Source: Candidatus Zambryskibacteria bacterium RIFOXYD1_FULL_40_13
GTDB lineage: Bacteria; Patescibacteriota; Minisyncoccia; Phycocordibacterales; DATDWN01
Reading direction: 5' to 3'
NCBI GenBank assembly: GCA_001824295.1
Contig: MHWY01000008.1
Span: 52,261 to 116,260, forward strand
Length of the DNA stretch: 64,000 bases
Shown in pieces: positions 7,624 through 48,088 of this stretch. The position numbers and the translations under genes are program-made. A model generated the notes under the pieces. It was not told the origin of the DNA, did not search any database, and saw only the letters and a program-made list of their open reading frames with translations. The number at the start of each line of letters is the position of its first letter. Within the stretch, counting starts at the first letter, position 1.

Positions 7624-9375
7624 TTATTCTGATATTACTCTTAATACTTCCTCAATGGTGGTTATGCCTTGTACGGCCTTAAATATTCCATCTTCGTACA
7701 TTGTAAGCATTCCTTCCTTTTCTGCTTGAAGCTGGATGTCATCTGATGTCCCTGATTTCAAAATAATTTCTTTTATAGTTGGTGAAACCTTCAAAATCTC
7801 ATGAATTCCAACTCTCCCAGAAAAACCATCTTCAGATGAAACATCTTTCTTTATTCTCCAAAAAGGAACCTTATCCCAGGTGTCCGACTTTTCGACAACC
7901 TTTTCTTCCTTGAGTGTCTTAAGTACCTTGTCCAGATTGATAGACCTTCCAAGTGTATCTAGTTCTGCTTTTGATAGAAAATATTTTTCTTTCTGATCGG
8001 TCAGCTTTCTGACAAGCCTTTGTCCAATAATTATATTAATTGTTGATACAAGTAAAAATGGCTCAACTTTCATATCAATTAACCTTGGTATGGTTCCAGC
8101 AGCTGAATTGGTGTGAAGGGTGGACAGAACCACGTGTCCAGTAAGTGCCGCGTTGACAGCAAGAGAAGCGGTCTCGTTATCACGAATTTCACCAACCATA
8201 ATTATATCCGGATCTTGACGAACAAGAGTACGAAGTCCATTTGCAAAAGTAAATCCAATCTCTGGACGAACCTGTGTTTGATTAATCCTTTTCATCTGAT
8301 ACTCAATAGGATCTTCAATGGTTGAAATGTTAAGATCGGGAGTATTCAAAATATCTAAAATTGTATATAAGGTTGTTGTTTTTCCTGAACCAGTCGGACC
8401 AGTAGTCAAAATCATTCCTGTTGTTGATTTCACCGCCTTGTGTATTCTCTCCAGTCCCTCACCATGAAAAGAAAGGTACTCTAAAGTAAACCCCGAAACA
8501 TTTTCACGGAGGAGTCGCATCACAACCTTTTCACCATAATAGGTTGGCAAGGTGGAGACACGGAAAGATACCTTTTCGCCATCTGAGTCAATCTTAAATC
8601 TGCCGTCCTGAGGAAGACGTTTTTCGTCAAGCTTAAGACTTGATAATACTTTTATGCGGGCAACTACACTTGGAGCCATGTTTTTTGGTAATATCATGGC
8701 ATCGTGCAACAAACCATCAAGCCGATATCTGACCAATAATTCATGTTCCTGGGGCTCAATGTGAATATCAGAAGCATTTTGTAATATTGAATGCTTTAAT
8801 AGAGTATCTACAATACGAACGACTGGAACATCATCTGCTAATTTTCTAAGATTTTCTTCGCTTGTGTCAGACTCTGGATCATCAGCGATACTTTTTATTG
8901 AGTTAGCCTCTTTTTGAATTAAGTCTCCAAACTCCGCCTTGAGTGATTTCTGATATTGCAATATGGCGCTTTTCATTGAGTCCGTATCAGTAAGACGAGG
9001 AAGAATCTTTAGACCCACTTTCTTCTTTATAAAATCAATCGCTGTTAAGTCCTCTGTATCAAGCATGGCAACTTCAAGCGAAGTGTCGGTTTTTTTGAAG
9101 GCTACAATATTGTGATTACGAGCAATTGGTTCTGGAATAAGAGAAAGGACATCAAAAGGAAGTTTTTCTGTCTTGAGATTAACAAAAGGAATACCAAGGA
9201 TGTAGGCCTGCATACGACGAAGATCGTCTTCCGTCATCTTTCCTTTATTTACTAGTATTTTTCCAAGATTTCCACCGGTCTCTTTCTGTTCCTTCTCAGC
9301 AGTTTCAACATCTGCTCGTGAGACAAGCCCCGAGTCCAAGATAAATTCCTTTAATTGTGCTTCTTCAATATGCAT
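7624..9375 (-). CDS. pilB: Type IV pilus assembly ATPase PilB (GspE family)
   Basis: 583 aa; Walker A GPTGSGKTTTLYTIL; GspE-type ATPase core; N-terminal GspE_N-like region. Confidence 0.9.
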   Translation of the reverse strand: MHIEEAQLKEFILDSGLVSRADVETAEKEQKETGGNLGKILVNKGKMTEDDLRRMQAYILGIPFVNLKTEKLPFDVLSLIPEPIARNHNIVAFKKTDTSLEVAMLDTEDLTAIDFIKKKVGLKILPRLTDTDSMKSAILQYQKSLKAEFGDLIQKEANSIKSIADDPESDTSEENLRKLADDVPVVRIVDTLLKHSILQNASDIHIEPQEHELLVRYRLDGLLHDAMILPKNMAPSVVARIKVLSSLKLDEKRLPQDGRFKIDSDGEKVSFRVSTLPTYYGEKVVMRLLRENVSGFTLEYLSFHGEGLERIHKAVKSTTGMILTTGPTGSGKTTTLYTILDILNTPDLNISTIEDPIEYQMKRINQTQVRPEIGFTFANGLRTLVRQDPDIIMVGEIRDNETASLAVNAALTGHVVLSTLHTNSAAGTIPRLIDMKVEPFLLVSTINIIIGQRLVRKLTDQKEKYFLSKAELDTLGRSINLDKVLKTLKEEKVVEKSDTWDKVPFWRIKKDVSSEDGFSGRVGIHEILKVSPTIKEIILKSGTSDDIQLQAEKEGMLTMYEDGIFKAVQGITTIEEVLRVISE

Positions 9376-9383
9376 GAGAAAAA

Positions 9384-9418
9384 TTTCTAATTTCTAATTT
9401 CTAATTTCTAATTTCTAA
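9384..9418. repeat. Heptanucleotide tandem repeat (TTTCTAA)x5 in divergent pilB/nusA intergenic region
   Basis: Read directly: tttctaatttctaatttctaatttctaatttctaa, immediately upstream (antisense side) of the pilB start. Confidence 0.9.
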
Positions 9419-9765
9419 TCAATTTTCAATGATTAAATTATAAAATTAGAATTTTATTATCTGTATTATAACAAAAAATAAAACTTATTACATAAAGAAT
9501 GTGTATAAATATTGTTTGTTAAGAATAATATTCAAGTAAAAATTCTTCAAAATTACTTATTTGACAAGAATGCATGAACTGTGATAATATGGTGTTATTG
9601 AAGTTCGCCCACCCGGGCGGGCTAATTTTTTACAAGAAATTAACGAGCAAGGCGACTATAATTTACTAGTACCCCGTGAAATAACTTTGGCAAAGCCAAA
9701 GTTCCCGCAAAGCGGGATTTCACAGGGTGATGTTATTCTAATCGCTCCGCTCAAGAATAACTATC

Positions 9766-31149: not shown

Positions 31150-31219
31150 GTAGAAAGTTAAAAGTTATCAAGTTAATGCATAAATTATAACATGAAATCA
31201 TGTCGCACAATATTTTTAG

Positions 31220-31250
31220 ACAAGAAAAGACCGCCTCACGGGAGGCGGCC
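31220..31250 (-). terminator. Rho-independent terminator
   Basis: Minus strand: GGCCGCCTCCCGTGAGGCGGTCTTTTCTTGTC. Confidence 0.65.
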
Positions 31251-31481
31251 AAGGAAGAACAGGGTGGCCAGAACGCCGGCCACGAACGAGAGGATCTGGC
31301 GCCAGTACTGGCGCCAAGCTGAGCGAATGAAATGAGAGAGATGTCGGTACAGGAATCGGTCGATCGCTCTCCACACCCGCCCGACGGCCGGGGGGCCACC
31401 CACCAACAGCGCCAGGCCGGTGATGAGTAGCATGATGAGAACGGAAAGCGTGAAGAGCTCGTTGAGTAGCATCTGTAGCAC
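31236..31481 (-). CDS. GC-rich hypothetical small membrane protein (2 TM)
   Basis: 81 aa; ~60% GC; SD GAGGTG 7 nt upstream of the ATG; terminator directly downstream. Confidence 0.45.
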   Translation of the reverse strand: MLQMLLNELFTLSVLIMLLITGLALLVGGPPAVGRVWRAIDRFLYRHLSHFIRSAWRQYWRQILSFVAGVLATLFFLGRLP

Positions 31482-31644
31482 CTCGGTTCTTGGGTGGCCT
31501 GTGTGACCACCTCCTACCCCGTATTATATCATATAGAGGTGACAAAGTCAAGAATAAAACAGTTTCCTGGGATTTTTTGGCTATAACTAGGCCCAATAAA
31601 ATAACCTTGCAATGTAGTGGGTTTTGTGATATCCTATCGGAACA

Positions 31645-40840: not shown

Positions 40841-41593
40841 ATGATAGAAAAATATCTAGAAGATGCTGGGTTAAGCGACAAAGAAGTTAAAATATATCTG
40901 CAATTAATACAAATGGAGAAAGCTTCTGTGGTAGATTTGGCAAATAAAACAAAGATTAAAAGACCGACTGTTTATACAATACTTGATTCTCTGGCAAAAA
41001 AGGGGTTGGTAAGTCAGATAGATGAGGACAAAAAAACCAGATATTTTGCTGAATCTCCTGATAAATTAAATTTGTTTGTAGAAAGGAAGGAGCAATCCCT
41101 AAAAGAACTGAAAGAAAGATTTGTTAACGACATTATTCCTCAAATAAAAAGTTTACAGAGAGAATCTGGAGAAAAACCTATCGTGAAGTTTTTCTCAGGT
41201 AAAGAAGGAATTGTAAGTGCCCACGATAATGTTTTTTATGGAAAACCAGATGGGTCACCAACATATATAATATATTCCAAGGATTTAGTTGATGAATCAT
41301 TCAAAAACGAGGAGACAAATAAATACCGCAACACTAGAATAGAGCTTGGTATAAAAGCAAAAACCATATACAACTGGTCAAAGGGGGTCAAGGAATCTGA
41401 CGAGATGGCCGAAAGAATAAAAGTTGATGAAAAAAAATATCCCTTTTTTACTGATATTACTATTTATAAAGATAGGGTGAGAATTAACATTTTGGGCAAG
41501 AAATTATCTGGTATTTATATTGAGAGTAAGGATTTAGCTGAAACTCTAAAAAGCCTGTTCAACCTAGCTTTTGATAACCTAAAAAACAAATAG
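40841..41593 (+). CDS. TrmB-family transcriptional regulator (paralog of 28426)
   Basis: 250 aa; LSDKEVKIYLQLIQMEKASVVDLANKTKIKRPTVYTILDSLAKKGLV wHTH. Confidence 0.55.
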   Translation: MIEKYLEDAGLSDKEVKIYLQLIQMEKASVVDLANKTKIKRPTVYTILDSLAKKGLVSQIDEDKKTRYFAESPDKLNLFVERKEQSLKELKERFVNDIIPQIKSLQRESGEKPIVKFFSGKEGIVSAHDNVFYGKPDGSPTYIIYSKDLVDESFKNEETNKYRNTRIELGIKAKTIYNWSKGVKESDEMAERIKVDEKKYPFFTDITIYKDRVRINILGKKLSGIYIESKDLAETLKSLFNLAFDNLKNK

Positions 41594-41606
41594 CAACAGA
41601 TATGGT

Positions 41607-41950
41607 GAAGGCCTGACGGGGGAATTGAATCCCCCCGCCAGGCCTTTGTCGAAGCCGAAGCTCCGTGGTCTTAGCCCTTTCGGGCCGTGTTGTTGGTAGT
41701 CTTTCGAGCTACCGTCCGTCCCAACCCGCATAGCGTGGTTGTGACGAACAAACGATAACTACTAGTCGAACACGGCCCCGCCTCCTTTCTGGAAAGGGCC
41801 CCGAACGAGACACTACCCGGATCAAACCCCACCGGCTCTGCTTGGGATGCCCTATCGCACCCCAAGTTCGCCCGCCGGGTTAGTCCCACATCCTCGCCTC
41901 CCTTGAACTGGGTTGACGTACCAACATAGAGTATACACCCTATGTTTATT
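41607..41950. other. GC-rich structured non-coding segment; begins with a tRNA-like minihelix hairpin
   Basis: GGCCTGACGGGGGAATTGAATCCCCCCGCCAGGCC (acceptor-like stem enclosing a T-arm-like hairpin); further hairpins GCCCTTTCGGGC, GGTAGTCTTTCGAGCTACC; ~58% GC; no ORF. Confidence 0.35.
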
Positions 41951-42093
41951 TTGTCAAATACGAATTTCAAAACAGATTAATTCTGTGTCAATTTAGTTAT
42001 GTTTGTGTCAGTCTCATTTATAATCAATATTATAATAAACGGCCTTATTATGGGCTGTTTTCATTATTCGTATAGATGATTTGTCAGAACTCC

Positions 42094-42122
42094 TTGACAA
42101 AAAATAGGACTTAGTATATACT
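42094..42122 (+). promoter_or_regulatory. Near-consensus sigma70-type promoter (TTGACA-17-TATACT) driving the 42259 gene
   Basis: ttgaca aaaaataggacttagta tatact read directly; followed by a ~125-nt leader containing a long hairpin GGATAACTTTCGCTTCC...GGGAGCGAAAGTAACCC. Confidence 0.6.
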
Positions 42123-42258
42123 ACTTCCAGAATCAAATAAACAAAAAGTCAGTTGGCTTTGACATCGGATAACTTTCGCTTCCACTTTGGTTGGTCCGGA
42201 TCGCACATATTACTTGCGAGGGACCCCAAAGCGGGAGCGAAAGTAACCCACATTTGAG

Positions 42259-42582
42259 GTGAGTATGAAACGAGTGGTCTGTGCAGTCGTGCTAGTCCTC
42301 GCGGTCATGGCCACCGCTTGCAATGGGATGGTCCCCAAGCGAGAGGTGGTTCGGGACTACTGTGACACAGAGGTGGCGTACACCCTGTGGAAACAGGAGT
42401 CCGGGTACTGGCTCAATCTTCATGTTGGACCAGCCACCACGACCGTCTATTCCTCCAACCCTGGAAGGACACGGATGGTCAACTTGTCGCAGAAAGTTTC
42501 CTCTCCCGAGGAAGCCGACAAGTTGGTAAGAGAAACTCAGCAAGCCCTTGCCGAGAAACTCGCTAAGGCACGCCGAAAGTAG
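42259..42582 (+). CDS. GC-rich small secreted/lipoprotein-like protein
   Basis: 107 aa; signal peptide with Cys (VLAVMATAC); SD GAGGTGA; ~55% GC. Confidence 0.5.
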   Translation: MSMKRVVCAVVLVLAVMATACNGMVPKREVVRDYCDTEVAYTLWKQESGYWLNLHVGPATTTVYSSNPGRTRMVNLSQKVSSPEEADKLVRETQQALAEKLAKARRK

Positions 42583-42703
42583 TGCCGTGTAGACCAATCC
42601 CAAGTCTACAGAATTAGAAACTGGGACAACAATACTTCGGGGAAGTACCGAAGCGCCTACCAAGCGGTCACTGATCGTCCTCCAGAACGCCATCCTGGAT
42701 CCG

Positions 42704-42925
42704 AGGAAACCATAAATCCTCGGGTTTCCTTAAAAGCGAATCACCAGAATATAGACCGTGGTTTTCTTTTAAGGGAAGAGAGAAGGTGGTGACAGTGTGG
42801 CACTGAAGCGTCACAGTCGTAAGACTTCGGATGTTTTGTCCCAAGCAGACGAACCGCCGAATGTCACACCACCCCTTCTCCTTCCCAGCGTCATAGTCCA
42901 GGCCGGTGCAGCGGCCAGAGGACGC
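42704..42925 (+). ncRNA. Structured RNA-like element, copy A (strand uncertain)
   Basis: Hairpins GGAAACC...GGTTTCC, CCTTAAAAG...CTTTTAAGG, GGCCGgtgcagCGGCC; purine tract GGGAAGAGAGAAGG pairs with CCTTCTCCTTCCC; homologous to copy B with compensatory changes. Confidence 0.45.
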
Positions 42926-43358
42926 GAGAGTGAAATTCTCCACCTTTAAGTGAACTCTCCACTACTCCTTCAGGGAGTAGAAGGTGGACGGCGAGAGAAA
43001 CTCGTCATCGGGGATTAAAACACGGGTGGCCACCATGTTCTACAAAACAAGGAGGTCGGCCAAGCCCGCAAAAAACACCCCGAACTGCACTCGTTCTTTT
43101 CATAAACAATCTTTCGAAACCAAAGGTATGAGGTAGGTGTGGACAGACACCATAACCGAGTAGTGATGTGATTTGATAAGTACACCCTGAAAGGGTGTAA
43201 GTAACAGATGATCCACCAGCAGTGGGAATGGAGTGATGCTCTCCAGTCATCGTGTTGCCACATCCTATAAAATGGATGGGGCTCTCCTGAGCTTCCGTTC
43301 AGCGGAGACAAGATCCGCACTGTCCTTGCTTCGGAAGGTTGTGCCTAAACCTTGCCCT

Positions 43359-43540
43359 GAGGAACCTTGAGTTTCTCGGGGTTCCTTAAAAGCAAATCAC
43401 TAAACATAGACTGTGGTTTTCTTTTAAGGGAAGAGGGAGTACACGAGGGCTAAAATGATGCGCCTCATAAAGGCTGTCCCCTGATGTATGGAAACTTCTT
43501 CCCAAGTTACTCGTCCAGGCCTGTGCAGAGGCCAAAGGAC
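43359..43540 (+). ncRNA. Structured RNA-like element, copy B (strand uncertain)
   Basis: Same architecture as copy A: GGAACC...GGTTCC (covaries with A), CCTTAAAAG...CTTTTAAGG (identical stem), GGCCTgtgcagAGGCC (covaries with A); the variable middle domain differs. Confidence 0.45.
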
Positions 43541-43791
43541 TGTGGGGTGGTATGTATCCGTCCGAACCGAGAACCCCCCCGTACTCTGCAAGAGTAAAGG
43601 ACGGATGGTGAAGACTTACATTCATCATTGGGTAAAATGCCCCTCTAATGGGCAGTCATCCGTGGGGATTGTTGAGTGGAAACACCGCACCCTATTGACC
43701 CCAAACTGCACACCGCTCTTTTTGGAACGGCTCTACGGTTAAGGCTTCGCAAGCTACCATCGTGGGGCCTTTTTCGTATTAAAATTACACC

Positions 43792-44151
43792 CTACTCACC
43801 TTTTTGCCAATACATATTTAAATAGGCTGCTAGTCTGTGATATTTATCAGAAATAGACATCCCAGTTTCTTCATCAATTTTTTCATCACCAAGAGAAAAT
43901 CCATCTAGGGCCCCGAGCGAATTCTTGAACAACCTACCTCCAACCATAAAAGATTCTACCCCATCTTTAGATTTATATGAATCAATAAAATCCTGGGCTT
44001 CTTGTCTAGTTAACCCGCCTTCTTCACCCCATTTTATTGCTTCTTCAATAAATTTTTTTCTTCTGGCAGTTTTTTCTTTTTCTGTGTCACCCATCATAGA
44101 TTCTGCCTGTAAAATTTCTTCCTCTGTTGGTGTGTATTTATCTATACTCAT
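43792..44151 (-). CDS. Hypothetical protein (AT-rich, native-looking)
   Basis: 119 aa, acidic, no recognisable motifs. Confidence 0.35.
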   Translation of the reverse strand: MSIDKYTPTEEEILQAESMMGDTEKEKTARRKKFIEEAIKWGEEGGLTRQEAQDFIDSYKSKDGVESFMVGGRLFKNSLGALDGFSLGDEKIDEETGMSISDKYHRLAAYLNMYWQKGE

Positions 44152-44291
44152 AAATTTTATACTAGTTACTAATAGGTAATATTATACAATAAATGACCGG
44201 TGATGCCACACAACTTCTTGCGTAATAATAAAATTGACAAATTAAATGGTGAGAGTAGATTTAAAATCAGATAACCAACCTGGGAGGCAGT

Positions 44292-44618
44292 GTGGGCCTG
44301 AAGGCAAAGATGTCGTTGCGTATCGAGATTCCCTTTCTCACGGAGAACCCTCTCCGACACCTGATTGAGGTTGAGCTTGACCTCGATCTTGATCGAGGAA
44401 CCACAGTCCGGGGAAAGATTCCGGAGGAATTCACCATCGGCCCACAAAGGGTGTTTGTAGGCAAGGGAAAAGGACTCCTTGGTGCGATGGTAGACTGGCT
44501 CAAGCAGGTTGATTCTTCGGTGGAGTACCTTCCTGCCCACTGCAAGGTGGAGGACGAGAAGCGACGCCAAGCGGCCGAACAAAGACTCAAGGAAATGGGT
44601 CTATGGCCGATGCTCTAA
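44292..44618 (+). CDS. GC-rich hypothetical protein (GTG start)
   Basis: 108 aa; ~52% GC; SD GGGAGG 4 nt upstream of GTG; terminator at 44627-44663 (ccccgtgtggcccaaaaggccaccggggcttttt). Confidence 0.4.
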   Translation: MGLKAKMSLRIEIPFLTENPLRHLIEVELDLDLDRGTTVRGKIPEEFTIGPQRVFVGKGKGLLGAMVDWLKQVDSSVEYLPAHCKVEDEKRRQAAEQRLKEMGLWPML

Positions 44619-44826
44619 TGTACACTCCCCCGTGTGGCCCAAAAGGCCACCGGGGCTTTTTGGTTTATAAAATTTACACCACCACAGACAGTAAGTTTGG
44701 AAAATAGCTCGGTGAGTTTTTGTTCGAGTTCAAGGCGGAATGAGAAAATGCGAGGAGCCTTACTTGTCGTAAGGTGATGAGAATTTTTGAAATTCCAACG
44801 CAGAAATCGGAAAAAAGACCCGAGCG

Positions 44827-45861
44827 TTAGAAAGGATTCCTTGCGCCTCTAATTTCGAAATGTAGATGTACACCAGTCAGCCCCTTAACCCTCCCCGTAT
44901 TTCCCATTTTACCTATAACCTGACCCTGCTCAACAGAATCTCCAACATTTACTGACACTCCAGAAAGGTGAGCATAAACCGTCTGTGTGCCGTTACTGTG
45001 TTTAATAACAATATAAGAGCCATAACCACCATTCCAACCAGAACCCTTTGAAACAATCACCTGGCCAGAAGCTGACGCAAGAATATTTGAGCCATAGGAA
45101 GAAGCCAAGTCAACTGCATACCTGTCGTGCAAACCCTGTGTCCTTATTCCTCCAACAATCGGTCGCATGTAATAACCTTCGTACGTTGGATAAGATGTGG
45201 TTTTCTTTGTAGAACTGCTACCGCCCGATGAAACTTGGATAGCCTCACCACCAGGCACAACGATAATATCTCCTATAGCAAGTTTAGAATTTTTACTTAG
45301 GTTGTTATACATTAAAACTTCTTCAAAATCTCCTTTGTATAACTTGGTTATGCTTTGAAGAGTATCACCAGACTTGACCTTGTGTTGTATTCCAGATATT
45401 GGCAAGATAACCAATGTTTGACCCACAGAAATAGTGCTTCCTTTTATATCATTACTCCACCTTACTGTGTTTACCGAGACCCCAAACATCTTGGCGATTG
45501 CTGGTAAGGTATCGCCTTTTCTAACGACATACAAGCTAATTTGGTCTTCATCTACGGTCTTTGAGTCATCAAATTTTTGAACTTCTGGTAGAAGAAATGC
45601 ACCATCAACGATGGTGATTTCCTCCTCGGCAGTAGTCGAGCTCTGGTTAGGAGATATTGTGGCCTGGAGCAAGGCCATATTCTGGGAATTTAGCTCAAAC
45701 TCCTCTGTCTGGGCCTCAGCTTTTGAGAAAAAACCTGTGAAGAAAGAAATAACCCCGGCCTTTGCAGAAACGGGGACAGACAAACATATAAAAATAATTA
45801 CAGAAAAAACACCGTTGGTTAGTAACCTACTTATGTTCACCGCTGATTTGTCTGATCCCAC
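44827..45861 (-). CDS. LysM-domain M23-family peptidoglycan endopeptidase
   Basis: 344 aa; signal/TM; two LysM repeats (YVVRKGDTLPAIAKMFGVSVNTVRWSN; HKVKSGDTLQSITKLYKGD); M23 motifs HDRYAVDL ... GVHLHFEIR. Confidence 0.85.
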   Translation of the reverse strand: MGSDKSAVNISRLLTNGVFSVIIFICLSVPVSAKAGVISFFTGFFSKAEAQTEEFELNSQNMALLQATISPNQSSTTAEEEITIVDGAFLLPEVQKFDDSKTVDEDQISLYVVRKGDTLPAIAKMFGVSVNTVRWSNDIKGSTISVGQTLVILPISGIQHKVKSGDTLQSITKLYKGDFEEVLMYNNLSKNSKLAIGDIIVVPGGEAIQVSSGGSSSTKKTTSYPTYEGYYMRPIVGGIRTQGLHDRYAVDLASSYGSNILASASGQVIVSKGSGWNGGYGSYIVIKHSNGTQTVYAHLSGVSVNVGDSVEQGQVIGKMGNTGRVKGLTGVHLHFEIRGARNPF

Positions 45862-46159
45862 TGGGCTACATTTTGAGAATGATTTGCCGCCCGTGCTTTT
45901 AAGACCTGACCCTAACCGCGGATCTTGTTGTGAGCTTATAATAAGCTAAAAATTAAAATATATTCTGGTTGTCAGTGGCAAATATGGCTCTACTAGACCA
46001 TATTTTAGTCTCCTTAGTTCAGTACTCCTAAAGTATATACCTGCAGGCTGTGGGGTCAATAGGGGTTACACACAGCAAGCAATAGTCCGTAAAGTTCATA
46101 AAGTTGAAAGTTTATAAAGAAAATTCGGGAATTAAAAAGAAAAATGCTAAAATCAAGCA

Positions 46160-48088
46160 ATGAATTATCTTGATGGATTAAATAAAGAGCAGAAAGAAGC
46201 TGTTTTGGCTACCGAGGGACCCGTTTTAATCGTGGCTGGGGCAGGAGCTGGCAAGACAAAGACCATAACCCATAGAATTCTACATCTTATTTTAAGTGGG
46301 CAGAGGCCCGACAACATCCTGGCAATTACCTTTACAAACAAAGCCGCCAAAGAGATGAGGGAGAGAGTAATGAATCTAATTGTGGGTTCAGCCGAAAGAC
46401 GTGGGGTGCCATTTGTCAGCACCTTCCATTCTCTGGGGGTACAAATTCTGAAGGAAAACTCGGAACTACTCAAGCTTCCAAGACATTTCAACATCTTCGA
46501 CAAAGCCGACTCAAAGAAAGCTCTAAAGGATGCTATTGTGTCTCTTGGGCTAGATCCCAAAGAACATTTGGATAAAGTTCAACACATAATATCTGGTGAA
46601 AAGGGCAGGGGGGTAGATATAAAAGAGTATTTGGAAAAGGAAAGCTACGACTACACATCGGAACTTACAAAAAGGGTGTGGACAAAATATGAAGAAACCC
46701 TGGTAAAGGAAAACGCTCTTGATTTTGATGATTTGTTACTGAAGACACTAAAACTTCTAAAAAAATATCCCGAGGTTCTGGAAAAATATCAAAACCGCTT
46801 TTTATACATTCATATAGACGAATACCAGGACACAAACAAGGTACAAAACGCCATTGTTGAGCTTCTAGCAAAAAAACATAGAAATTTGTGCGTGGTGGGG
46901 GATACTGACCAGAACATTTACAGCTGGCGTGGAGCAGAAATAAAAAACATGTTGCATTTTGAAAAAACCTATCCTGAAGTACAAACTTTCTTTCTGGAAC
47001 AGAATTACCGATCAACAAAAAATATTTTAGCCGTAGCAAATGAGATTATTGAAAAAAATAATTTCCGTATTCCCAAAAAACTATTTACAGAAAACGTTGA
47101 GGGAGAGAAGGTGGGTTTGTTTAGGGGTAGAAACGAAATAGATGAGGCCCACTTTATCGCCATGAAATCAAAAGAGTTAATATCATCTGGAACTACGGAT
47201 GAAAACATAGCCGTACTCTATAGGGCCAACTTTCAATCAAGAGTTTTGGAGGATGCATTTCTTTCGCACGGGGTGCCGTACCAAATGCTCGGCACAAAAT
47301 TTTTTGAGAGAAAAGAAATCAAGGATGTGGTTGGTTATATCAAAGCATCGCTCAATTCAAATGATGTTGGTAATTTCATTCGGACAATCAACATCCCACC
47401 AAGGGGTATAGGAAAAACCACCGTACAGAAAATCATCCAAGGACTGGAAAAGGACTTGCCTGAAAATACAAGGTCTAAAATAAACAACTTTAGAAACATG
47501 CTTGGAGATTTCAACGCCGTACTTAAAAATCAAAAACCAAGTGATGCAATAAAATACATCATAAAGACTTCGGGCATAGAGATTTTGTACGAAACAAAAT
47601 CCGAAGAAGATTTAGACAGATTGGAAAACATTATGGAGCTTGTTTCACTTGCAAAAAAATATGACAACTTAGAGCCAGAAGAAGGTATTGAAAAATTCTT
47701 AACCGATGCTTCGCTGGTTTCTGACCAAGATTCACTCAGCGAAAAAAGGGGTGGTGTAAAACTTATGACTGTCCATTCCTCAAAAGGCCTTGAGTTCGAC
47801 TACGTTTTTGTATCCGGACTAGAAGCCGACCTTTTTCCACACAAGAAAATGTTTGAATCAAAAAAGAGTGGCGAGGACAAGGAGGAGGAACGACGTTTGT
47901 TCTACGTGGCAGTTACTAGGGCTGGGAAAAAACTGTTTTTGACATTGGCAGACACCCGTACTATATTTGGAAATACAGAAATAAATTCACCCTCGGAATT
48001 TATAGACGACATTCCAGAAAAATACGTTGAGACCGAATCATTTGTATCTGAAACAAAAAAAGAACCGTTGTTTAGTATAGATTTTTAA
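46160..48088 (+). CDS. UvrD/PcrA/Rep-family SF1 DNA helicase
   Basis: 642 aa; Walker A AGAGAGKTKTITHRI; helicase motifs VDEYQDTN, QNYRST, VTRA. Confidence 0.9.
   Translation: MNYLDGLNKEQKEAVLATEGPVLIVAGAGAGKTKTITHRILHLILSGQRPDNILAITFTNKAAKEMRERVMNLIVGSAERRGVPFVSTFHSLGVQILKENSELLKLPRHFNIFDKADSKKALKDAIVSLGLDPKEHLDKVQHIISGEKGRGVDIKEYLEKESYDYTSELTKRVWTKYEETLVKENALDFDDLLLKTLKLLKKYPEVLEKYQNRFLYIHIDEYQDTNKVQNAIVELLAKKHRNLCVVGDTDQNIYSWRGAEIKNMLHFEKTYPEVQTFFLEQNYRSTKNILAVANEIIEKNNFRIPKKLFTENVEGEKVGLFRGRNEIDEAHFIAMKSKELISSGTTDENIAVLYRANFQSRVLEDAFLSHGVPYQMLGTKFFERKEIKDVVGYIKASLNSNDVGNFIRTINIPPRGIGKTTVQKIIQGLEKDLPENTRSKINNFRNMLGDFNAVLKNQKPSDAIKYIIKTSGIEILYETKSEEDLDRLENIMELVSLAKKYDNLEPEEGIEKFLTDASLVSDQDSLSEKRGGVKLMTVHSSKGLEFDYVFVSGLEADLFPHKKMFESKKSGEDKEEERRLFYVAVTRAGKKLFLTLADTRTIFGNTEINSPSEFIDDIPEKYVETESFVSETKKEPLFSIDF

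Follow-up and report, generated by a model that had tools for sequence, protein, structure and literature searches.

Here we describe two diverged copies, A and B, of an RNA-like element encoded in a 64-kb window (the whole stretch of DNA that was analysed) of Candidatus Zambryskibacteria, a tiny groundwater bacterium of the Parcubacteria/candidate phyla radiation (CPR) lineage. Each copy joins a 5' module to a 3' module, and comparison with relatives argues that the two modules are a new, previously uncatalogued family of plus-strand RNA structures. Both repeats lie in a GC-rich stretch (50-58%, in a window of 39.8% GC) between a gene for a TrmB-like regulator (40841-41593) and one for an M23 peptidase (44827-45861, minus strand), with ComM-like ATPase and UvrD genes also in the neighbourhood. 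The stretch reads, in order, as promoter, hairpin leader, lipoprotein gene, unit A, module M, unit B and terminator, an operon layout that is kept in nine related loci. The parts that frame the two units are as follows.

42094..42122, plus strand: sigma-70-type promoter of the operon, TTGACA-17-TATACT, an 11/12 consensus match
42130..42264, plus strand: structured leader with hairpin arms 42167-42190 and 42226-42249 (inverted repeat I1), then the Shine-Dalgarno (SD) sequence GAGGTGAG
42265..42582, plus strand: small lipoprotein gene of 105 amino acids (aa), MKRVVCAVVLVLAVMATAC..., 56% GC, recognised by its translation and a signal peptide with a Cys lipobox
42583..42698, plus strand: hairpins after the lipoprotein open reading frame (ORF) and the junction flank CCAGAACGCCATCCTGG (42682-42698), kept in loci L012, L013 and L082
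43111..43349, plus strand: module M, a structured spacer separating copies A and B, 95% identical in L136 and 71% in L082
43729..43776, plus strand: intrinsic terminator of the operon, GGCTCTACGGT...ACCATCGTGGGGCC followed by TTTTT, a hairpin in the predicted fold

Related loci were identified by three routes, namely matches to the lipoprotein (L012, L013), a relaxed hairpin pattern in metagenomes (L082, L111/L039, L115), and the TrmB-like protein at 57-80% identity (L136-L143). A scan of contigs for CCTTAAAAG-N20-40-CTTTTAAGGGAAG returned nine matches, all of them unrelated chance occurrences, and this pattern was too strict. The loci have a common layout consisting of a trmB-like gene, a minus-strand GC-rich unit, divergent promoters, and a GC-rich plus-strand operon with few called genes. 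The operon promoter and its spacing are kept in L013, L082, L111, L115, L136 and L138, the leader is 70-82% identical in nucleotide sequence to the leaders of L082, L111, L115, L136 and L138, and the terminator is kept, and even duplicated, in L082 and L136. The lipoprotein, which matched no Pfam family, has homologues at 64% and 49% identity in a protein search and at 44-64% by tblastn in L012, L013, L082, L115 and L138. Between these landmarks, the hairpin after the lipoprotein ORF carries a compensatory change in L013 (CTTCGG/CCGAAG to CTTTGG/CCAAAG), and substitutions in module M spare its predicted pairs. Copies A and B thus appear to lie within a single plus-strand transcript of ~1.65 kb, from the promoter at 42094 to the terminator at 43729-43776. 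An earlier note on this DNA had described a GC-rich non-coding block. This block does not stand alone between genes: it lies downstream of a real protein-coding gene in the same transcription unit. Public gene callers annotate a 133-aa antisense ORF (42292-42693, minus strand) in place of the lipoprotein gene; the lipoprotein frame is the one kept at the protein level in relatives, and this antisense ORF is a spurious call over a real gene and RNA.

A repeat search recovered the two copies as direct repeats where the earlier note had placed them, in three co-linear blocks of 75-92% identity, and a MAFFT alignment of A with B has a mean column identity of 73%. The repeat blocks and the modules that they belong to are listed here.

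42694-42744/43350-43400, plus strand: repeat block 1, 75% identity
42748-42783/43403-43438, plus strand: repeat block 2, 92% identity
42878-42923/43495-43540, plus strand: repeat block 3, 78% identity
42699..42778, plus strand: 5' module of copy A, with hairpin alpha 42699-42707/42717-42725, hairpin beta 42705-42711/42723-42729 and hairpin H2 42726-42777; covariance model 70.6 bits on the plus strand, 22.7 bits on the minus strand
42773..42886, plus strand: P3 domain of copy A, GGGAAGAGAGAAGGTGGTG... with ...CACCACCCCTTCTCCTTCCC, closing an A-specific insert (minimum free energy (MFE) and centroid folds)
42896..43090, plus strand: 3' module of copy A, with H4 42896-42923 and its loop GTGCAG 42906-42911, helices P5, P5a, P6 and P7, an orphan SD-like AAGGAGGT 43049-43056 and the tail CTGCAC 43085-43090 (RNAalifold consensus, compensatory pairs)
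43354..43433, plus strand: 5' module of copy B, alpha/beta hairpin and H2; covariance model 80.3 bits on the plus strand, 29.2 bits on the minus strand
43429..43503, plus strand: P3 domain of copy B, GGGAAGAGG with CTTCTTCCC, closing an insert with ACACGA...CTGATGTATGG (MFE and centroid folds)
43513..43711, plus strand: 3' module of copy B, with H4 43513-43540, its loop GTGCAG 43523-43528 and the tail CTGCAC 43706-43711 (compensatory pairs)

The copies are longer than the ~200 nt first proposed, because they become similar again towards their 3' ends (ACCCCGAACTGCAC at 43077-43090 and ACCCCAAACTGCAC at 43698-43711); unit A spans 42694-43110 (~417 nt) and unit B 43350-43725 (~376 nt). Nor did the claimed GC contrast of ~58% against a ~38% genome hold at that size, since we measured 51% in A and 50% in B. 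The units had also been said to contain no ORF, which is correct for conserved ORFs but not for short ones, as frames of 45-101 aa are present on both strands; in homologues these frames are missing or interrupted by stops, or they are kept only where the DNA itself is over 93% identical. The helices named at the outset were all found in the sequence. They comprise the beta stem (GGAAACC 42705-42711 with GGTTTCC 42723-42729 in A, GGAACC with GGTTCC in B), a second covarying stem (GGCCG-gtgcag-CGGCC at 42901-42916 in A, GGCCT-gtgcag-AGGCC at 43518-43533 in B), a third stem, CCTTAAAAG/CTTTTAAGG, that is identical in both copies, a purine tract GGGAAGAG... that pairs with a downstream ...CTTCCC, and the helix GGTGGTGACAG/TGTCACACCACC that closes the A-specific insert in the MFE fold. 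Both copies fold far better than their shuffled versions (z = -5.8 for A and -4.5 for B, with 0/100 shuffles as good). A template/variable repeat pair of a diversity-generating retroelement was considered and ruled out, because the changes from A to B show no specificity for adenine and the neighbourhood has no reverse transcriptase.

The 5' module consists of a bistable alpha/beta hairpin, the hairpin H2 (CCUUAAAAG/CUUUUAAGG; UUCCUUAAAAG...CUUUUAAGGGA), whose base is invariant in sequence, and the purine/pyrimidine helix P3 (GGGAA/UUCCC). In a manual alignment of ten copies from syntenic loci, standard pairing reaches 96.9% for alpha with H2 and 95.0% for beta with a shortened H2, against 38-68% in slid controls. 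The GGAAACC/GGUUUCC helix of the earlier note is beta, which falls outside the minimum-energy fold because alpha is predicted to be 3-15 kcal/mol more stable, yet is kept in all ten copies, one of its pairs occurring in four Watson-Crick types (A-U, C-G, G-C and U-A). Only one of alpha and beta can form at a time, and formation of beta also unpairs the base of H2, so that GGGAA becomes free for P3. An H-type pseudoknot combining the two was ruled out, since it would require a zero-length loop across a 6-bp stem; the helices are alternatives. The register of P3 itself covaries between copies, GGGAAGAG/CTTCTTCCC being replaced by GGGAGAAGG/CCTTCTCC in L136, and the P3 architecture of copy B is also present in L082 and L136. 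The B-type P3 inserts (window 43440-43500; L136 8470-8520 and 9240-9290) have in common ACACGA, a variable hairpin and UGAUGYAUGKG, and the two flanking strands could form tandem G-A pairs in a k-turn-like or loop-E-like internal loop. A degenerate hammerhead was also tried for this insert and ruled out, as it lacks stem II and its stem III is out of register by 3 nt.

The 3' module comprises H4 with an invariant GUGCAG loop, the helices P5, P5a, P6 and P7, and a tail of (A/G)ACUGCAC followed by a U-rich tract. H4 reads GUCC-A-GGCCG-GUGCAG-CGGCC-AGA-GGAC, and the CUGCAC of the tail is complementary to its loop. Eight copies from syntenic loci were compared with 500 shuffles and with slid alignments. 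Standard pairs are formed in 97.4% of cells, against 84.4% in shuffles and 29-41% in slid controls; compensatory changes occur in 24 of the 36 pairs, and in none of the 500 shuffles do the paired fraction and the covariation score get as high. All helices covary except the loop-tail pairing. The inner stem of H4 is found as GGCCG/CGGCC, GGCCU/AGGCC, GGCUA/UAGCC, AGCCA/UGGCU, AGCCG/CGGCU and AGCUU/AAGCU, and even the 95%-identical L136 counterpart of copy B differs from it in H4 by two compensatory pair changes. Within the copy-A 3' module, the window, L082 and L136 agree at ~97% over an 85-nt stretch, GGGGATTAAAACACGGGTGGCCACCATGTTCTACAAAACAAGGAGGTCGGCCAAGCCCGCAAAAAACACCCCGAACTGCAC, with flanks at 75-80%. 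A possible ORF of 28-33 codons at 43035-43136 on the plus strand, basic and beginning MFYKTRRSAKPAKNTPNCTRS..., with the SD-like AAGGAGGT, is absent from other variants of the 3' module.

Window and L136 are 95% identical over 563 nt, close enough for individual substitutions to be placed on a fold predicted from the window alone. Ten of the 24 substitutions fall on unpaired positions, 12 keep a pair (four of them compensatory) and two break one; random placement breaks 6.6 +/- 1.7 (P = 0.0075), and on the fold of the minus strand the same substitutions break six. With the covariance model of the 5' module, 11 copies score 57-87 bits on the plus strand; minus-strand scores do not exceed 40 bits. 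The plus-strand scores and the sparing of pairs therefore favour an RNA read from the plus strand and disfavour repeats that act at the DNA level, and the structures are kept, on this strand only, by compensatory change and selective sparing of pairs.

Searches against Rfam release 15 bear out the earlier statement that no known family could be matched by eye: the region is empty at gathering scores, where the window yields only four tRNAs, tRNAs are also all that the whole window returns at E<=0.05, and at E<=10 within 41900-46200 the best matches are chance-level fragments of microRNA or small nucleolar RNA families. A search with the covariance model of the 5' module finds exactly two copies in the window. 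Compensatory changes in homologues from five to six related genomes exceed those in controls, as expected of a novel conserved structured RNA, and this bears out the proposal of a functional family with stem-preserving covariation; neither a known family nor a mobile-element end emerged, and the homologues do covary. What changes is the nature of the element, which had been treated as a single unit and is composed of two separable modules that are untranslated regions (UTRs) of small genes in relatives.

In these relatives, the 5' module stands directly upstream of an SD and AUG in six copies (L012, L111, L115, L138a, L138b and L142). The genes that follow are for small proteins, secreted or of the membrane: a Cys-rich 71-aa ORF in L012, a lipoprotein homologue in L111, L115, L138a and L142, and a membrane protein in L138b. 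The 3' module in L111, L115 and L138 lies between the lipoprotein ORF and the terminator, closing the 3' UTR before the U-rich tract. This 5' UTR position is absent for both window copies and for L082, L136B and L136C, in which a 3' module follows rather than an ORF: in window A and B, in copies B and C of L136 and in L082, an expanded P3 insert links the 5' module to the 3' module, with no conserved ORF.

The same boundaries are occupied in relatives by self-cleaving ribozymes. Type III hammerheads with intact cores lie at cassette junctions of L082, L111, L115, L138, L141, L142 and L143 (36-48 bits, E = 1e-4 to 1e-8, scores that fall just under the Rfam gathering score of 48.5). The hammerheads per locus are as follows.

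L082: 1
L111: 2
L115: 1, and 1 variant by eye
L138: 1, and 2 by eye
L140: 1 by eye
L142: 1
L143: 7-8, and a twister-P1 (54.8 bits, E = 9e-10)

These hammerheads have a common upstream hairpin flank, CCAGAACGCAUCUGG, and a downstream UGUUCYUUAAAA motif. The junction flank CCAGAACGCCATCCTGG of the window is also found upstream of hammerheads in L111, L115 and L138, module M comes after a hammerhead in L111, L138 and L082, and in unit A hammerhead-type flanks (42682-42698 and 42725-42735) surround the alpha hairpin. The most direct case is a 25-nt flank, CTTCTGGAGCGTCATCCCAGAA, that is 100% identical in L012 and L082; in L012 it leads into CCGAGG, of the alpha hairpin, and in L082 into a hammerhead. 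The window itself yielded no hammerhead in Rfam searches, copy B holding only a CUGAUGUAUGGAAAC fragment without stem II. On this evidence the modules are associated, and positionally exchanged, with self-cleaving ribozymes. In L143 (TrmB identity 57%), hammerheads and the twister-P1 are interleaved between 7800 and 12620 with small ORFs of 49-237 aa, to our knowledge one of the densest ribozyme arrays in a chromosomal locus. A further GC-rich conserved RNA of ~690 nt, module X, occurs in L111 (3840-4530), L115 (5960-6640, minus strand), L138 (9090-9770) and L140 (about 9030-9700); it lies between two hammerheads in the first three, and in L140 only the upstream hammerhead was seen. Module X is absent from the window and has no Rfam match, and cleavage at both hammerheads would be predicted to excise it with 5'-OH and 2',3'-cyclic phosphate ends.

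Taken together, we consider it about an even chance that the modules are cis-acting RNA elements of cassette boundaries, serving processing, insulation and end protection, which in the window occur in an ORF-less form. Each window copy would then be an ORF-less version of a modular RNA cassette with its 5' module fused to its 3' module. At each junction, a ribozyme, or the alpha/beta hairpin as its nuclease-cleaved or structural equivalent, would delimit or insulate the cassette RNA; H2 would then become a protective 5'-proximal hairpin that sets the context for the start of translation, with the alpha-to-beta switch deciding whether GGGAA sits in H2 or in P3. The 3' module, possibly closed by a GUGCAG:CUGCAC pseudoknot, would shield the 3' end. 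In the window, where the payload ORF is absent, the units may persist as selected structured RNA segments and could be released as stable RNAs.

Several points weigh against this reading. We infer the processing and stability roles, and neither window copy precedes an ORF, so that a purely cis role on an mRNA cannot be the whole function in the window. The homologues all belong to a single clade and a single syntenic locus, and part of the conservation therefore reflects shared ancestry. The 3' module structure that was tested was derived from the very alignment used in the test, its H4-loop/tail pairing is invariant apart from a single G-U variant in L136 and is therefore beyond a test by covariation, and RNAalifold on four copies offers a rival pairing of the tail with GAGAGUG. 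The predicted stability advantage of alpha means that switching would need a trigger, and classical RNase III sites are longer than an alpha hairpin of 9-13 bp. A comparison of SD accessibility between the alpha and beta states gave no clear signal, with SDs partly paired in unconstrained ensembles and the picking of start codons failing at two loci.

Alternatively, the units could be stand-alone trans-acting non-coding RNAs (ncRNAs), either two paralogous small RNAs or an RNA that binds a protein or the ribosome, which would be freed from the operon transcript and would present the GUGCAG loop, the SD-like AAGGAGGU and the invariant base of H2 as interaction surfaces. Units without an ORF are under structural selection in the window, L136 and L082, the 85-nt stretch of the A-type 3' module is far better conserved among these three than its flanks, and the invariance of the H2 base and of the H4 loop suggests a partner that reads sequence. 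This alternative nevertheless strikes us as unlikely, given that these modules clearly serve as UTRs of ORFs in L012, L111, L115, L138 and L142, the units lack a promoter of their own, AAGGAGGU is missing from copy B, and no target or partner was identified.

It is tempting to go beyond the cassette-boundary reading and to see the locus as one instance of an undescribed, clade-wide island of ribozyme-punctuated RNA cassettes in Zambryskibacteria/Paceibacteria. In such an island, hammerhead, twister and alpha/beta-H2 would be interchangeable junction devices, alpha/beta-H2 would either cleave itself, as a new motif, or serve as a dedicated site for a nuclease or a toggle, and ORF-less units, as well as the hammerhead-flanked module X, would be excised as stable, possibly circularisable ncRNAs. 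We regard this broader scheme as a long shot.

We think it improbable, to a somewhat greater degree, that the units are decaying and functionless remnants of duplicated lipoprotein cassettes, that is, UTRs left behind after loss of the ORF. The order of parts invites this view, as L111, L138 and L142 run module M, 5' module, lipoprotein ORF, 3' module and terminator, and the window runs module M, 5' module, a 9-codon ORF starting ATGATGCG..., 3' module and terminator; the order of the units also differs between the window and its close relative L136, which has a truncated unit. Decay is hard to reconcile, however, with substitutions between window and L136 that avoid breaking pairs and include compensatory doubles in H4, or with the finding that L082, though more distant, still has ORF-less units that form these helices.

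Could the alpha/beta hairpin and H2 of the 5' module be a new class of self-cleaving ribozyme that replaces hammerhead or twister at the junctions? The module does occupy the place of the hammerhead behind an identical flank, L143 mixes hammerheads and a twister in one array, and unrelated ribozyme classes are interchangeable in common bacterial contexts, by which twister, pistol and hatchet were found (PMC6765202). However, nearly all of its conserved nucleotides lie within helices, with no conserved core in a junction or loop, and in L111, L138 and L142 the module comes after the hammerhead and module M rather than in the ribozyme's place. Moreover, H2 co-occurs with a hammerhead in L115, and therefore only the simple alpha hairpin is 'exchanged'. 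We hold a new ribozyme to be very improbable.

That the copies encode small proteins (for example at 42797-42949, 43035-43136 and 43488-43742) is scarcely credible. An SD-like purine tract does precede the GTG at 42797, and the 43035-43136 frame is open in L082 and L136, but A and B have no ORF in common, the 43488 frame has an in-frame stop in L136, and the 43035 ORF is kept only where the DNA is ~97% identical, being absent from copy B and from the L111, L115 and L138 modules, which retain the helices. A tblastn search with all window ORFs in the block gave matches only where the DNA was at least 93% identical, or matches with stops; the lipoprotein control was kept at 44-64%.

Least probable of all, to the point of being hardly worth entertaining, is that the repeats act as DNA, as palindromes like repetitive extragenic palindromic (REP) sequences or miniature inverted-repeat transposable elements (MITEs), as insertion sequence (IS) ends or as sites like integron attC: they do form hairpins, GTGCAG and CTGCAC make a 6-bp inverted repeat, and cassette order differs between close relatives, but just two copies exist in 64 kb, both within the operon and scoring 70-80 bits on the plus strand against 23-29 on the minus strand, G-U pairs and one-sided A-U/G-U changes fit the plus strand only, no transposase or integron integrase (IntI) is adjacent, the sole tyrosine recombinase is Xer-like and ~10 kb away, and inspection of the repeats by eye showed no GTTRRRY core sites. 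BLAST of 42100-43800 against phage and plasmid collections likewise found no match, lending no support to a phage origin, and pattern scans of viral contigs for the H2 hairpin, for the hammerhead with its flank and for the 85-nt stretch found nothing related, the two stretches that fit the H2 pattern matching by BLAST in neither case.

The closest known arrangement is the hammerhead-punctuated polycistron of bacteria and prophages, in which multiple hammerheads flank genes and processing is the suggested role (Perreault et al. 2011, PMC3088659). In the related loci, likewise, small genes of a single operon are separated by type III hammerheads, 1 to 8 per locus, with a twister in addition, and processing into single-cassette RNAs would be the natural reading of these arrays. 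Unlike those systems, the window has no ribozyme match and its junctions hold a non-ribozyme bistable hairpin, and the setting is a conserved chromosomal CPR island beside a TrmB-like regulator, with no phage genes and no match in phage, plasmid or viral collections. We therefore place this locus as a chromosomal CPR variant of that arrangement with new non-ribozyme modules. Literature searches on hammerheads or ribozymes in CPR, Patescibacteria or Parcubacteria returned nothing relevant, and no paper that ties hammerheads or structured RNAs to CPR or Patescibacteria was found.

Other comparisons are looser. The synthetic RiboJ combines a ribozyme and a hairpin as a 5' insulator, and the ompA 5' UTR and STAB-SD are natural stabilisers of mRNA. 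The order hammerhead, H2 hairpin, SD and AUG in L115 mirrors the design of ribozyme, hairpin and ribosome-binding site, and the A-type 3' module has, like STAB-SD, an SD-like AAGGAGGU without a start codon; however, there is no homology in sequence or structure, and the orphan SD is in the 3' module rather than a 5' UTR and is absent from copy B. As in riboswitch expression platforms, attenuators and RNA thermometers, two conserved helices, alpha and beta, exclude each other, and the switch re-pairs GGGAA between the H2 base and P3 upstream of an SD. In contrast to them, no conserved junction or unpaired core resembling a ligand pocket is apparent, Rfam gives no riboswitch match, neither state clearly sequesters the SD, and in the window there is no ORF for the copies to control. 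Large GC-rich structured RNAs such as HEARO/omega RNA, GOLLD, ROOL, raiA and OLE, all of which are in Rfam, came from screens of AT-rich genomes for GC-skewed intergenic regions. The present block is likewise GC-rich, ORF-poor and highly structured in an AT-rich genome, with covariation, but it matches none of their models even at E<=10, has no IscB/TnpB-type gene nearby, and consists of UTR-like modules, not of a single autonomous fold.

What bacterial hammerhead and twister ribozymes are for is described as still largely elusive (PMC6765202). If the cassette island is real, it would offer a natural system for reading out that role. The related loci provide natural versions of one cassette boundary with and without a ribozyme, and the modules may help to explain ribozyme arrays. 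The operon, which is chromosomal and conserved in a CPR lineage that has not been cultured, mixes ribozymes with new structured modules at junctions and gene ends. Its 5' and 3' modules are at least two new RNA motifs for a phylum group in which hardly any non-coding RNAs are known, and module M, the leader, the minus-strand unit described below and module X are further RNA candidates.

Other features surround the operon. Divergent from it, a minus-strand unit of 330 nt and 58.5% GC (41596-41925) has a promoter at 41957-41930 with an 11/12 consensus match and shares its terminating hairpin with the trmB-like gene. The fold of this unit has z = -8.2; the unit is kept in L082 and L136, has no Rfam match, and is probably another structured RNA. 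A reading of its 41600-41640 hairpin as part of a transfer-messenger RNA or tRNA-like element was rejected, as ARAGORN and Rfam were empty there and the hairpin is the bidirectional terminator. The AT-rich region between the divergent promoters (41930-42130) contains repeated TGTCA(A/G)-type motifs that are kept in relatives and are possible operators for the adjacent TrmB-like regulator.

On the downstream side, 84 bases of the window (43766-43849), spanning the end of the terminator and the 3' end of a 119-aa gene, are present in the JGI contig Ga0208375_1000046 and missing from NCBI LBWC01000002.1, both of which are otherwise 100% identical to the window; strain variation or a difference in assembly could account for this. 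Further on, the plus-strand segment 44234-44665 holds a GC-rich 108-aa ORF (44292-44618) with its own promoter (44234-44261) and terminator hairpin. Unrelated small ORFs with their own promoters follow the operon terminator in L136 and L082, bracketed by duplicated copies of that terminator, and the downstream region therefore looks hypervariable. Elsewhere in the window, a GC-rich mini-gene on the minus strand (31210-31550) encodes a small membrane protein, MLLNELFTLSVLIMLL..., between an AT-rich promoter (TTGACT-17-TATAAT) and a terminator, so that GC-rich small genes recur in this AT-rich genome.

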